Positions 9,338 to 14,977 of a stretch of 64,000 nt of DNA are shown here, piece after piece. The translations under genes were made by a program, and so were the position numbers. The notes below the pieces were generated by a model that worked only from the letters and a program-made list of their open reading frames with translations, made no database searches and was not told where the DNA came from. This DNA comes from Paecilomyces variotii (lineage: Eukaryota): assembly GCA_004022145.1 (NCBI GenBank), contig RCNU01000009.1, one strand, 5' to 3'. Within the stretch, counting starts at the first letter, position 1. The number at the start of each line of letters is the position of its first letter.

Positions 9338-10402
9338 CTAGTTATGCTCCGGATTTCTGCCTCTTGCCTTCTCCTTCTTCAACCGTTCCTCCGCCGCTCT
9401 GGCTAATATCTCCCTTCGACTCTCCGTGCCAGTCGCACTGGGACGATCCTCCTTTAATCCACCTAGAACGAACTCGCCACCCGTCCAGCCTCTGTCGTCA
9501 ACTTCCTCCCTACCCGCCTGCTCTTCCCAATCTTGTGGATTATAGAACTCTTGTTCCGTCAACCGGTGGCCAGCACGAGTCCAATCTCCTCTTTCCACCT
9601 CCCCCTCGATTTGCTTGGTCAAGTTCCAAAAGTCACGATCATGTTCGCTAAACACGCAGTGCGCAAGCTCGTGGCAGAGCGTTTTCCGAATCGTTCGATA
9701 GTCGCGATACCCGTCGTATGCATCTGTTCGAAGACGTAACTCGATCACCTCTCCCTTATTCCGATTCAGTCCCAGTGTACGCGATGACTCTGTCGTGTGT
9801 TCGGCCGGGTTCATCTCCGTAAGCAACGGGACGGAGAAGCGGTGTTTTTGCATCGCAAACTTGATCCCTGGATCATCTCGCAGGCGCGCTAGGAACTGGA
9901 GGCTGCGATCTGGATTTGGGAGGTAGGAGAGCGGGAGAAGTCGGTGGAAAGTGTATGTATCTGGTGATGGCGATGATAGAGTGCGTACTCCTCCAGGAGG
10001 ACGGCGGGAGATGCGCGGGTGCGAGGAAGAGGTAGCTCGGGCTTCAAGACGTCTGCGATTTGATGAAACAGCCTCGTTTAAATCTGATATCTCCTGGGCA
10101 GGGCTGCCCAGCAAGGTGATTTTGAACTTTGGCGAAGAGCGAATCGAGTCTGGGAGGAACTCCGCCAACGGAGTATTAGGGAACGGAGCCTTTAGCATGC
10201 CGGGCTTTGGGGAGATGAGGAATTTCTGGTTCTCCGTGGGTATATGTAGTTCTGAGGCGACTGTCGAAGAGAGATCCTGCATCGTAGCAGACGCAGGAAG
10301 AGTGTATGCATGAGGAGAACCTCGATAGTGGATAGTGAGCGTTATCGCATTCTCCGAATCCATTGCGGAGAGAGATGCAGGGTGTTCCCCGGACGTGCTC
10401 AT
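9338..10402 (-). CDS. UBL-WLM domain zinc metalloprotease (Wss1-like)
   Basis: N-terminal ubiquitin-like segment, WLM core LGLNRNKG..IELRLRT and HELAH (HExxH), and a C-terminal VCP-interacting-type motif RREILARAAEER. First ATG in the ORF is at 10402. Confidence 0.88.
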   Translation of the reverse strand: MSTSGEHPASLSAMDSENAITLTIHYRGSPHAYTLPASATMQDLSSTVASELHIPTENQKFLISPKPGMLKAPFPNTPLAEFLPDSIRSSPKFKITLLGSPAQEISDLNEAVSSNRRRLEARATSSSHPRISRRPPGGVRTLSSPSPDTYTFHRLLPLSYLPNPDRSLQFLARLRDDPGIKFAMQKHRFSVPLLTEMNPAEHTTESSRTLGLNRNKGEVIELRLRTDAYDGYRDYRTIRKTLCHELAHCVFSEHDRDFWNLTKQIEGEVERGDWTRAGHRLTEQEFYNPQDWEEQAGREEVDDRGWTGGEFVLGGLKEDRPSATGTESRREILARAAEERLKKEKARGRNPEHN

Positions 10403-10597: not shown

Positions 10598-10625
10598 TAG
10601 TTAGTTAGTTAGTTAGTTAGTTAGT
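10598..10625. repeat. (TAGT)n microsatellite
   Basis: About seven tandem TAGT units seen directly. Confidence 0.9.
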
Positions 10626-10881
10626 CATTGACTAAGGCATTCGATGAGGCATGCATTTTAAACTGTGTACCTGGATTCTAGTTGATATCTGTTTTAGCTA
10701 ATGAAACTGGATTGTCTTAATCTAGTTTTACTTGGTGGCTATATTTCCAACGGAATTCCAACATAGAATGACGTTCTCAGATGGCGATCTAAAGGCGCAA
10801 TTAATAAGCTCGGGCGAGCCCACGGCACAGAATATTCGAAAAGGCACATTAACCAAAATCTTCTCAACAATTCCAACAAAG

Positions 10882-10953
10882 TCCGATGTGGTGTAATGGC
10901 TAACATCGCTGTCTCTCACACAGCAGCTCGGGGTTCGATTCCCCGCATCGGAG
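10882..10953 (+). tRNA. tRNA-Glu(CTC), copy 1
   Basis: 72 nt. Acceptor TCCGATG/CATCGGA, anticodon arm GCTGT-CT-CTC-AC-ACAGC, T-loop GGTTCGATTCC, and a T5 terminator at 10968-10972. Confidence 0.97.
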
Positions 10954-11292
10954 AGATTAAGATTTCCTTTTTGTTTCCGAAATTTTTTGGCCTGGTTACG
11001 GGTGATAGTATCGGGTATTGATTTTATCACGACTGGTTTATGCGGTTTTATTCTTTTTTTTTTTCTTTTCCTCTCTTCTGTGCCGCTATTCGCGAGCTCT
11101 ATAGTGGTTTTGACTAGTTTTCTGTAGGATTATTTCCCAGTATCATGACGTTCTCAGATGCGTAGCTAAGTGCTCCGCACCGATACTGCAGTCTAGTCTC
11201 AGGAGCTATAATAGTTCCTTCACTCTTGAACGGCGGCCGATCGTGGTATAGCGACCGAGAGCACTGCAGTGATTCTTCTCAGGCAGCTAGCC

Positions 11293-12051
11293 ATGGAACT
11301 GACAATTGCCGATATTACTTTCATCCAGGTCCTCAAAGAATCTGACTCCTCTACTATTTTTCAAGTGACCGTTCAAGGGAAACTATGTGTTCTTAAGGTG
11401 GTATGTTGTTTATGATGAACCCAATTTCCTGAGCATTTCCTTAAGATAACTGCAGTACCACAGCGCAAAGAGATCTTACGCCGACCCTCCTAACCGTGAA
11501 ATCGATCCCTTCATCTGTGAGAGTACTGCATATCATCGTCTAAAAGAGTACGGATTATGTCGACAAGGAGTGGTACCAGACTTCTACGGTGTGATAAAAG
11601 GGATCGATCCAACATCGTGCCAACCCTTTTTGAAGCGGTTTTTGAAGGATGAGCTCTTCCCCAATGCCATCCTCATTGAATATATTCCGGACTTGCATGA
11701 AATAGATCTTTCAACATTTTCAGACTACCGCATAGCCACACTTCGTACAATTCTGGAGAGCATCCATGGAGTGGGAATTTATCACGGCGACCCCTACCCT
11801 CGAAACATGATGGTCCAGAAATACACAAAAAGGGTTCTCTGGATCGACTTTGATCATGCACAGACATTCTCAGAGCGTAAATGGAACTCTCAGTGGATAG
11901 AGGACGAAAAGGAAATGGTTAATGAGTTTTTTGACGCCCTAGTAAGTACTCCCCGATTGTTTTCCCGATCCAACTGACCTCTGCCTAGATAGAAGACTAT
12001 AATGATGGCAAGATATCGCGCACCTGGCCTTATTACTACACATATTTGTGA
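11293..12051 (+). CDS. Small atypical protein-kinase-like (PKL-fold) protein, 3 exons
   Basis: Exons 11293-11400, 11456-11941 and 11989-12051 splice in frame. Motifs: CVLKVY (VAIK-like Lys), FICESTAY (alphaC Glu), ILIEYI, HGDPYPRN (catalytic loop) and WIDFD (DFG-like). No Gly-rich loop. Resembles a kinase-like family I recall as expanded in Eurotiomycetes. Confidence 0.85.
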
Positions 12052-12239
12052 ATTCGCTTCAAATTATAGAATAGCTACAAAATGAGTTCTCTATGAGTGG
12101 AAATTGCATCTTAGTGACTGTATGGAGAAGCAGAAATGACGATAGTCCTGGAGATTAGTCTAGTAGTCATTATATTTGCTGTGGTGACTTTTGGCCGTTA
12201 GGGTCATTTATGACTTCTAGATGCTCGACCTCGCAGCGA

Positions 12240-13080
12240 TTATATCTAACTCTTCTCCGTCAGACTTCATATTGCAGGGCAGTTTTTTCGTCCTTCCTAT
12301 ACTCGGACTAGAGGAGACCCAACTCATTCAATAAACATTTATCATAGCCTTTTTCAGAGCAGCATCGCCCTTATAATCAGTGCCCAACATTTACTCGCCA
12401 CTGTTTGCTATCGCCTGCTGTGTTTTTCAAGTAGTATAGAAGATTGCTTACAAAGTGTTCTAAGTGTATCTTGTAGGAAATGCTTTACCCAGACGGAACG
12501 AACTAGCATACTTGATAACTGCTGTTCAATCTAGTTAGTTTCCGAAAATAGAGGACTACTAGATTTGCCACAGAATTCGCTGCTTAAAAAGTTGCAATGT
12601 CTTTTTTCCAGTAGATAAAATTCGACTAACTACCTGGTAAGCCTATTAGGGCTAATAACTTACACACACCGTGTTAGTACTTCTAGTATTGCTTAAACGT
12701 CGATTCGGGAAAATATCTTATAACTTTAAGGGCTTACTCATTATATTAAGGACTGGTAGGTTATGTGGTAAGGTATCCAAACGATTTAAATAACCTCCCT
12801 TATCCTTTCCTCGTTATCGTATAGTTAGGTGCTTTTATCATTAAGTGGGCATCGGGTATATTAACTCGGCGAGGGGGTAGCTTTTTCCCGTGAATTTATC
12901 CTAGTTTCTAGCCTCGAGCTAAGTACTAAAACTATCGATTATTCTCCTATTACACTACTATATTATTATGCGGAAATATATATATTTACTTAACTACTTA
13001 CCTACTTATTATTATTAAAAGGTAAAAAAGCTATTTAACTATAATAACCTCTCAGAACGGATACTAGTTAGTAGTTACCC
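12240..13080. pseudogene. Degenerate AT/TpA-rich relic, probably RIP-mutated
   Basis: No ORF of 60 aa or more in the track across 12.0-13.3 kb. Strong TA/TAA/TAG enrichment, most marked at 12900-13080. Confidence 0.5.
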
Positions 13081-13183
13081 ACCGGTATCCGCGAACTACG
13101 GCACATACAAAGCCAAAACCAGACCCATAATTTTTCGGTTTAGGTCATGAATCAAAAATTTTCACACCACTCCAACAACTACA

Positions 13184-13255
13184 TCCGATGTGGTGTAATG
13201 GCTAACATCGCTGTCTCTCACACAGCAGCTCGGGGTTCGATTCCCCGCATCGGAG
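13184..13255 (+). tRNA. tRNA-Glu(CTC), copy 2, identical to copy 1
   Basis: Same 72-nt sequence as 10882-10953, followed by a T-run terminator at ~13266-13276. Confidence 0.97.
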
Positions 13256-13940: not shown

Positions 13941-14977
13941 TCAGGCGTACTGATTCTGTCGATCCTCTTGTCGTTTCTCCTCGTCGAGCTGCTTCTTCCG
14001 TTCCTTTTCCTCCTGTTTCTGTCTCTCCGCAATGTGTGGCTCATCGGCGACCCAAATCTTCTGCTCAGGGCTCCAAGTGTGGCTGCGCAAAACGTTAGCT
14101 AATGGCTCTATAATGAAAATGTATAATCGATAACGTACTTCTGGAAGTGAGTCGAGGACAATGCCTTGCCGGAATATTCTGCGATCAAAATCGAGTCGTA
14201 CTTGAACGGCACTTTGGCGGGCACGCCTTCATAGGTCGTCTGACGCATCGGGTAGAGATCCTCCGTGTTGTACTTGTGGAAATTTTTGCACTGCCAAACT
14301 CCGGGCTCGACGTCGGGATGGAGCTCGCTCAGGCCGGTGATGTCGATGTATAGACCGTTGCGGATGTCGATCCAACGGGCGTCGATGATATTCAGGCCTT
14401 CCCCTCGATCACGCTGGCGTGACCACGGGTTGACATCGAGCAGATACCTCCGTTTGACCTTTCGATCTTCTGAGATGTACTGCGCTATCGTCTGGTTGAA
14501 ATGGTCTCCCATGTATAGTAGAGTTTCCTCGGAAACCTGGGTATCGACGTCCCAGTCCCACGGTAGCATCTACAAGAAAAAAAGAATGTCAGCATTGAGT
14601 TCCAGGACCTTCCGGGTCACTCAGCCTACCTTGCCGTTCCACCACCAACCCAACAGCGTTCCATGTGCAATCCATGTCTCCAGACCATTCTCCCGGAAGA
14701 ACTCCAAATATGCGCGGATCATGTGAGTGAGTGTATCTGTCCGCTCGTCGTACGAGACAACACCATGGAAGAACCGAGTATCATAGTGCCCCATAATATC
14801 ATCACCGCCAGGCTCGTGGAAATATTTGGTCTCCGCAGGCTTTGGGGGCTTTTCCTGCTCCTGCTCCTGCTGCTGTTCCTCATTCTCGGCTGCATCGGCG
14901 CGGACTGACAATGGAGACGCCAGAATCAAGATCGGGTATAAGGCGATCAGCAGCGCCAGCAAACTCAGGTACCTCAT
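13941..14977 (-). CDS. LicD-family (fukutin/Mnn4-like) phosphotransferase, secretory pathway, 3 exons
   Basis: Signal peptide/anchor, KYFHEPG..HYD.RFF, TWIAHGTLLGWWWNG, LPWDWDVDTQV (DxD) and IDARWID..NGLYIDIT. The last exon ends ...DRQNQYA* at 13941. Confidence 0.88.

Follow-up and report, generated by a model that had tools for sequence, protein, structure and literature searches.

A probable tandem tRNA-Glu duplication in Paecilomyces variotii, split by a putative insert with a probably horizontally shared kinase gene that may be an orphan antidote

The locus described here lies in a 64,000-nucleotide stretch of the Paecilomyces variotii genome (the window), in which two tRNA-Glu(CTC) genes enclose a small atypical kinase gene and a stretch marked by repeat-induced point mutation (RIP). 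Coordinates without a prefix refer to the window, and the source genome's assembly of ~30 Mb is denoted G000. A first-pass annotation made from the sequence had drawn attention to the tRNA pair, and ARAGORN and sequence comparison have borne out its description: the two genes are 72 nt long, identical, in the same orientation and 2,302 bp apart. The intact kinase-like gene that it placed between them has also been recovered, with exons 2 and 3 reading open and with all three exon translations contained in a 218-aa database protein (P0123). The RIP-like stretch that it noted is real, with a composite index of 1.18. The features of the interval are as follows, including the blocks from which its history can be read.

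10882..10953, + strand: tRNA-Glu(CTC) copy 1 (tRNA1; ARAGORN; Rfam RF00005, 57 bits)
13184..13255, + strand: tRNA-Glu(CTC) copy 2 (tRNA2; ARAGORN), same sequence as copy 1 and as an unlinked copy at locus L004
11293..12051, + strand: atypical (Rio/Kdo-like) kinase gene, 218 aa, three GT-AG exons (11293-11400, 11456-11941, 11989-12051)
12447..13090, no strand: RIP-like relic, ending 93 bp 5' of tRNA2, single-copy in G000
10714..11106, + strand: putative first unit of a tandem duplication, made up of block A (10714-10792), block B (10784-10879), tRNA1 and its trailer; A matches 11107-11169 and B matches 13091-13178
11107..11169, + strand: block A', the left portion of the putative second unit (55/61 aligned letters identical, a score reached by 0/1000 shuffles)
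13091..13178, + strand: block B', the right portion of the second unit, 5' of tRNA2 (63/85 aligned letters identical to 10784-10879; 0/1000 shuffles and 0/707 real control pairs reach the score)
11170..13090, no strand: putative insert of ~1.92 kb splitting the second unit, placed by junction alignments

The elements follow one another in the order A-B-tRNA1-trailer-A'-[1.92 kb]-B'-tRNA2, with a repeat period of ~380-390 bp. The region used for the A/A' comparison was picked after a shared 16-mer had been seen at 10768 and 11145, and a genome pattern search has found these two to be its only exact occurrences in G000. The 8-9 letters by which A and B overlap are present in degenerate form at both insert junctions (11160-11168 and 13091-13098), which would resemble a decayed target-site duplication. 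Neither the insert nor the relic has yielded terminal repeats, inverted or direct, in five tests, 47-332 of 500 shuffles reaching the observed scores. The homology upstream of the tRNA genes is thus split at 11170/13090, which places both ends of the inserted DNA within the interval and predicts an empty allele with two tRNA genes ~380 bp apart, not one. Taken as a whole, the arrangement probably reflects an old tandem duplication of the tRNA-Glu gene, with an insertion of ~1.9 kb taking place later and with ends other than the tRNAs. As a first step, the tRNA-Glu gene would have been duplicated in tandem together with ~170 bp of upstream sequence and its trailer, the tRNA bodies staying identical while the flanks decayed. 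As a second step, ~1.9 kb would have entered the second unit ~93 bp 5' of tRNA2, in one event or in two; in the latter case a kinase piece and a repeat later mutated by RIP would have arrived as separate pieces, with the tRNAs as bystanders rather than attachment (att) sites.

The first-pass annotation had regarded the ~30 bp upstream of the two tRNA genes as similar, and this similarity holds over a longer span. When 130 nt are compared, the pair scores 41, a value reached by 0/707 unrelated tRNA-gene pairs and by 0/33 other identical-tRNA pairs (maximum 37; 39 genes). Three results point the other way. Over 35 nt alone the likeness is ordinary, at 8.0 compared with 8.5, 8.5, 7 and 7 for unlinked pairs; a wide-window flank comparison is weak, with 36/200 shuffles reaching its score (2/200 for a narrow window); and the two trailers display no significant likeness, their score being reached by 186/707 control pairs.

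The same A-B-T / A'-insert-B'-T' pattern would result if the long unit were ancestral, the whole kinase-bearing segment having been duplicated in tandem and its first copy having then lost kinase and relic. Such a history would also supply the duplicate that RIP requires and that the relic does not have now. It is nonetheless improbable, since RIP is expected to mutate a linked duplicate and the kinase gene carries no RIP signature. A short duplication of 8-9 bp, degenerate in form, at the two junctions also agrees with insertion, and the matches listed include none of this subclade's kinases under the name of P. lecythidis or of divergent Paecilomyces assemblies.

A different origin had been put forward in the first-pass annotation, namely a tRNA-anchored mini-island which integrated or excises as a 2,302-bp circle by tRNA-tRNA recombination and spreads among tRNA loci. 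The 72-bp perfect direct repeats do stand in the right orientation for it, and the kinase is both patchy and mobile. The genes outside the interval, which it had described as housekeeping-type, flank the tRNA pair and have been assigned with Pfam:

9338..10402, - strand: WLM-domain metalloprotease gene (Pfam WLM, E 3.4e-54), the left core neighbour, used as the vertical-descent control
14108..14977, - strand: exons of a LicD-family gene (Pfam LicD, E 7.9e-14 and 2.1e-4), the right core neighbour, with gene ends unmapped

Consecutive accession numbers also put the kinase beside WLM in six further assemblies. Nineteen P. variotii contigs carry a member of the kinase's 90% cluster, compared with 23 that carry WLM; the kinase may thus be lacking, broken or mis-annotated in up to 4/23, and up to 4/23 annotated assemblies may hold a deletion allele without it, as the island would allow. 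The homology 5' of tRNA1 is, on the other hand, split around the insert, which is not a product of integration at a tRNA gene; with the junctions of the inserted DNA at ~11170 and ~13090, inside the interval, the tRNAs do not behave as attL/attR-like ends.

Sequencing data were checked across the interval in 4/23 listed runs, comprising three contig sets (X17, X20 and X2, the last a metagenome) and one set of raw reads (X23, ~31% read, 5% threshold). In X17 and X20, contigs span tRNA1 to tRNA2 through the cassette at a depth like that of the flanks; X2 covers the cassette in pieces and X23 covers it with reads, and neither contains a joint skipping or circularising the interval. The excised circle or single-tRNA allele that had been proposed is therefore absent from all four runs, three being contig sets that break at tRNA genes, where a rare empty allele would not show, and X23 being a partial set and the sole one of raw reads. 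The interval also lacks a recombinase, as had been noted at first: no ATG-started open reading frame of at least 70 aa that could encode one is listed there, and 12050-13183 is closed by stops in all six frames.

The proposed spread of the kinase family among tRNA loci has likewise failed to find support. G000 contains 12 kinase loci (the window copy and 11 paralogs, taken as 10 kb each), and a further 18 were collected from metagenomes, eight of them shorter than 3 kb. A tRNA gene lies near 0/11 of the paralog loci and 0/18 of the metagenome loci, and no other Rfam RNA, 5S rRNA included, has been detected in the 10 kb of each paralog locus or in the metagenome loci. A tRNA call at L038 under default, intron-allowing ARAGORN settings, with a 600-nt intron, was rejected as spurious, and relaxed ARAGORN scoring was discarded because it produced noise at all loci.

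Identity between the tRNA bodies is not special in this genome. The same tRNA-Glu(CTC) sequence recurs in a third copy on a different contig (L004), and three more Glu(CTC) genes share a single sequence among themselves. Among 30 fetched loci of 61 listed matches, at least five more places have identical tRNA genes clustered within 10 kb, a point which also argues against the island; one tRNA-Asn example has co-oriented copies 161 bp and 3.6 kb apart, and there are two further close pairs of same-anticodon tRNA-Arg genes. Close identical tRNA pairs, being common in P. variotii, will mimic att sites. The clusters at L108 (G000 C12:3494894-3499762) and L109-L113 consist of identical or same-anticodon tRNA genes (Asn x4, Ile, Trp, Ala, Arg) spanning 0.2-7 kb, with inverted pairs predominating and several enclosing a protein-coding gene.

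Prokaryotic integrative islands anchor at tRNA genes, and the locus shares with them a tRNA sequence directly repeated around accessory DNA. It differs from them in that whole tRNA genes are duplicated with their flanks, the ends of the insert lie internally, an integrase is missing and the relatives have no tRNA preference. A eukaryotic tRNA-anchored island is not supported, and as an account of this interval it is very doubtful. What stands of the original proposal is a single origin of the two tRNAs, by a duplication that took in their flanks, and the accessory, mobile character of the kinase DNA.

The mobility of the kinase is best seen when its relatives are compared with those of its neighbour. 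The window kinase is 99% identical to proteins named P. variotii, and its 90% cluster also contains two proteins of Monascus purpureus from two assemblies, one of them encoded on a 3.0-Mb contig. These differ from P0123 at 5/218 and 4/198 residues, while P. variotii alleles themselves differ by up to 6. In a quick tree of 63 chosen rows, made without bootstrap, Monascus groups with P0123 inside the P. variotii alleles (SH-aLRT 93). The WLM control presents a different picture, with 92% identity to P. lecythidis and 65% to Talaromyces stipitatus, and no row from outside Paecilomyces exceeds 72% in the best 120 of 1,804. Among the 120 listed of 154 kinase matches, none is named as a P. lecythidis protein. 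A second cluster joins T. stipitatus to another copy from M. purpureus (P0002/P0131), 15/217 residues apart, with 84% and 82% identity to the window kinase; judged by these proteins, this pair is likely to represent a further transfer. The holders Paecilomyces, Monascus and Talaromyces belong to three families.

It is thus very probable, on protein comparison, that the kinase has moved horizontally and that the exchange between P. variotii and M. purpureus is very recent. Two points tell against this account. At two residues Monascus agrees with the outgroup and differs from all P. variotii alleles, and for this reason no direction is assigned to the transfer. In addition, Monascus and the sister species were compared through proteins and the DNA evidence for the locus comes from P. 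variotii-type material; we infer the transferred span and the empty site. Were the account correct, a single gene would have passed very recently between two fermentation moulds that belong to different families, and would have done so outside any Starship that can be seen.

Starships are a known transfer route in the Eurotiales and a possible vehicle for the Monascus copy (PMC11162782, PMC13562431). One is reported as common to Aspergillus oryzae and M. purpureus (PMC13562431), which suggests an earlier involvement of Monascus in such transfers. The target classes described for these elements are 5S rDNA and AT-rich DNA (PMC11162782, PMC13562431). The insert differs from a Starship in measuring 1.9 kb and holding one gene, with no captain gene or multi-gene cargo. 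Literature searches have returned no paper on a Paecilomyces-Monascus kinase transfer or on a split nuclease-kinase pair such as that described below; Zhang et al. 2016 may already describe standalone pairs.

The catalytic residues of the encoded kinase are K35, E58, H146-G-D148-x4-N153 and D167, so that the beta-3 Lys, the helix-C Glu, the HxDxxxxN loop and the DFG-like Asp are all present; all 66 rows compared agree at E58, D148, N153 and D167, and K35 is nearly invariant. An AlphaFold2 model (pLDDT 95) has its best fold match in Rio2 (1tqi; Z 15.2, rmsd 3.2, 162 aligned, 21% identity), many other kinases following with tied scores, and the Pfam Kdo match of the family is just above the cut-off. 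Kinases of the Rio2, Kdo-WaaP and Bud32 type share its minimal kinase fold and intact catalytic residues; they differ in their low identity to it, as given for Rio2, and in that the family described here is lineage-expanded and mobile. A dN/dS of 0.18 has been obtained between the window kinase and its nearest paralog (C6), two other comparisons being saturated. In A. nidulans there are unclassified 'Ffk' kinases, and filamentous-fungus-specific kinases are described as often gained and lost without a known phenotype (PMC3591445). In the X23 isolate, read depth is 1.84x that of the flanks over 11308-12477 and 1.0x over the relic, which suggests that this isolate holds a further, closely similar kinase with its 3' flank, one that lacks the tRNAs.

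Comparison of the neighbourhoods of kinase paralogs has revealed a recurring second gene, which encodes a protein of ~260 aa with a PD-(D/E)XK fold. By profile search it lies at most 2 kb from the kinase at 4/12 kinase loci of G000, head-to-head at two and in tandem at two, and it is found at 3/6 distinct outside kinase loci having 2 kb on both sides. By our arithmetic, with 10 nuclease loci in 30 Mb, chance linkage would be well below 1 in 100 per locus. The copies at the paired loci are:

L030:6899-7693 (G000 C23): PD-(D/E)XK-fold nuclease gene, whole
L027:6041-6820: PD-(D/E)XK-fold nuclease gene, broken
L031:3231-4016: PD-(D/E)XK-fold nuclease gene, broken
L026:2943-3497: PD-(D/E)XK-fold nuclease gene, broken

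The nuclease is thus interrupted by stops at 3/4 paired loci, and at two of these (L026 and L027) exon 2 of the kinase has none. A second unbroken nuclease copy (L068) has other residues in place of the catalytic D and K and was not counted as active. At L037 a pairing suggested by tblastx was not confirmed by the profile, and the locus was counted as unpaired. The L030 nuclease and a protein of Lipomyces kononenkoae (P0342/P0344) are 78% identical, and two members of the kinase family occur in Lipomyces as well; from this identity, sharing of the L030-type nuclease with Lipomyces is likely to be a further transfer.

No Pfam family covers the nuclease; a search of 50% representatives gives 748 relatives for it at E <= 1e-10. 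Its fold matches are BpuSI (Z 10.2, rmsd 3.3, 149 aligned) and DrdV (Z 8.7), Foldseek of the model having given no match at E <= 0.001, and residues D137, D/E157, K159, Q186 and Y190 are conserved. An Atlas feature comparison points to SPOK2_N (0.91, 178 features) as a lead. Among 261 screened relatives, one (P0481) has a complete kinase-like domain in the same frame, its catalytic motifs being altered, and another contains the start of a kinase. For a pair from Aspergillus pseudonomiae (P0435 and P0013), the predicted complex scores 0.77, against 0.00 for the best of three controls; the mark used for this score is reached by 51/78 solved, 2/108 mismatched and 7/44 blind-neighbour pairs. Contacts are at least 80% the same between runs and partner pLDDT is at least 89; the conserved nuclease segment 23-41 is placed on the catalytic loop of the kinase (residues 147-152 and 169-172). 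On this modelling, the natural neighbouring nuclease and kinase are predicted to bind.

Such a combination recalls the Spok meiotic drivers of Podospora and Fusarium, in which a PD-(D/E)XK nuclease and an atypical Kdo-like kinase occur together, with a patchy distribution and cross-species transfer (PMC6660238; 10.1101/2025.02.05.636631). In Spok, the nuclease is reported to kill and the kinase to rescue in cis and in trans (PMC6660238), while how the kinase neutralises the nuclease is described as still unexplained (10.1101/2025.02.05.636631). The PD-(D/E)XK nuclease domain has its counterpart in the partner gene, which lies outside the window. The architecture is different, in that a Spok is one tripartite protein, whereas here two small genes (~260 and ~220 aa) stand head-to-head or in tandem, many kinases are orphans, and nuclease and kinase are separate at 4/4 paired G000 loci. 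By analogy the window kinase would act like the resistance half of a Spok, and by architecture it would not count as a member of the Spok family. Dyads of a restriction endonuclease (REase) and a kinase are described as widespread (PMC5289972), and the Crinkler/CR dyad offers a second likeness, with a toxic part of restriction-endonuclease fold, a kinase proposed as its regulator and a link to mobile DNA (Zhang et al. 2016 via PMC5289972). The pair differs from it in having no N-terminal header domain and in not being fused as a rule.

The mechanism that these likenesses suggest would add a third step to the history of the locus. The kinase family would travel as a two-gene module with the nuclease as the likely toxin, and the antidote kinase would bind and probably phosphorylate it, like a Spok protein cut in two. 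Once a unit is fixed, loss of the nuclease would be free, and loss of the kinase would be costly for as long as an intact nuclease remains or can arrive by fusion or mating. This asymmetry would explain why orphan kinases persist under purifying selection and are exchanged between species. Whether the nuclease-kinase pair has a toxin-antidote function is, on this analogy, close to evenly balanced. That the window kinase is the orphan antidote of a split Spok-like module, horizontally shared and placed by an old tRNA duplication and a later insertion, is the reading favoured here by a slight degree. The wider proposal is more tentative: the Eurotiomycetes would hold a widespread two-gene toxin-antidote system, a split equivalent of Spok, that moves between families as units of 1-3 kb, with nucleases decaying, orphan kinases kept and traded as immunity genes and the window recording one such trade between Paecilomyces and Monascus.

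Several observations stand against the antidote reading. In G000, 8/12 kinase loci and 5-6/10 nuclease loci are solo. No nuclease remnant has been detected in the 64-kb window by DNA or protein profile, and the link of the window kinase to the module consequently rests on family membership. The A. pseudonomiae proteins were taken as neighbours from their locus tags (257340/257344) and from contigs of equal length, and the cluster of the window kinase has 20/35 interface residues in common with the modelled kinase, no more than the overall proportion of 118/218.

The same anatomy and transfer would also be compatible with an ordinary accessory kinase, signalling or detoxifying, whose linkage to the nuclease is hitch-hiking in a decayed transposon-like unit. 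Most kinase copies being solo, purifying selection persisting where no nuclease is linked, and the gain and loss without known phenotype described for fungal-specific kinases (PMC3591445) would all agree with this. It has been considered unlikely in view of the recurrence of the linkage in four orientations-contexts across genera, the decay of the nuclease before the kinase, a predicted complex which covers the active site, and the joined open frame of P0481. If the antidote reading is true, a large and anonymous family of kinases gains a candidate role in neutralising a neighbouring nuclease, and a naturally split pair would let the way in which a Spok-type kinase neutralises its nuclease be tested directly.

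The second part of the insert, the relic, has a composition typical of RIP, with an excess of TpA and a depletion of CpA/TpG (TA 94, CA 18 and TG 21 in 644 nt), and the two top 500-nt RIP windows of the 64 kb fall within it. A DNA search of G000 for a second copy or a parent repeat, which skips common words, matched the relic alone. Its identification as a decayed nuclease partner has been rejected, as neither the DNA profile nor the protein profile matches it, and when the relic is tested as a RIP-altered duplicate of the sequence 5' of tRNA1 or of the kinase, the likeness is not significant (36/200, 42/50 and 41/50 shuffles). Comparison with 30 other tRNA loci gave no outstanding score. Some transposons insert near tRNA genes, and the relic may be a separate, tRNA-proximal transposon remnant.

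Within the relic, an imperfect palindrome of 128 nt occupies 12947-13075 (1/100 shuffles reach its score). At its left edge (12441-12446), X17 carries ~145 extra letters and X23 reads have loose ends; a short piece has probably been lost there in this genome, or gained in X17 and X23. Elsewhere in G000, a RIP-like stretch (index 1.16) lies upstream of a tRNA-Trp gene of a close pair (L093, C78), and the truncated kinase paralogs L036 and L034 adjoin strongly AT-rich, RIP-like blocks (GC 16-31%). Between the WLM gene and block A, a short tandem run of (TTAG)n type is present at 10598-10629.

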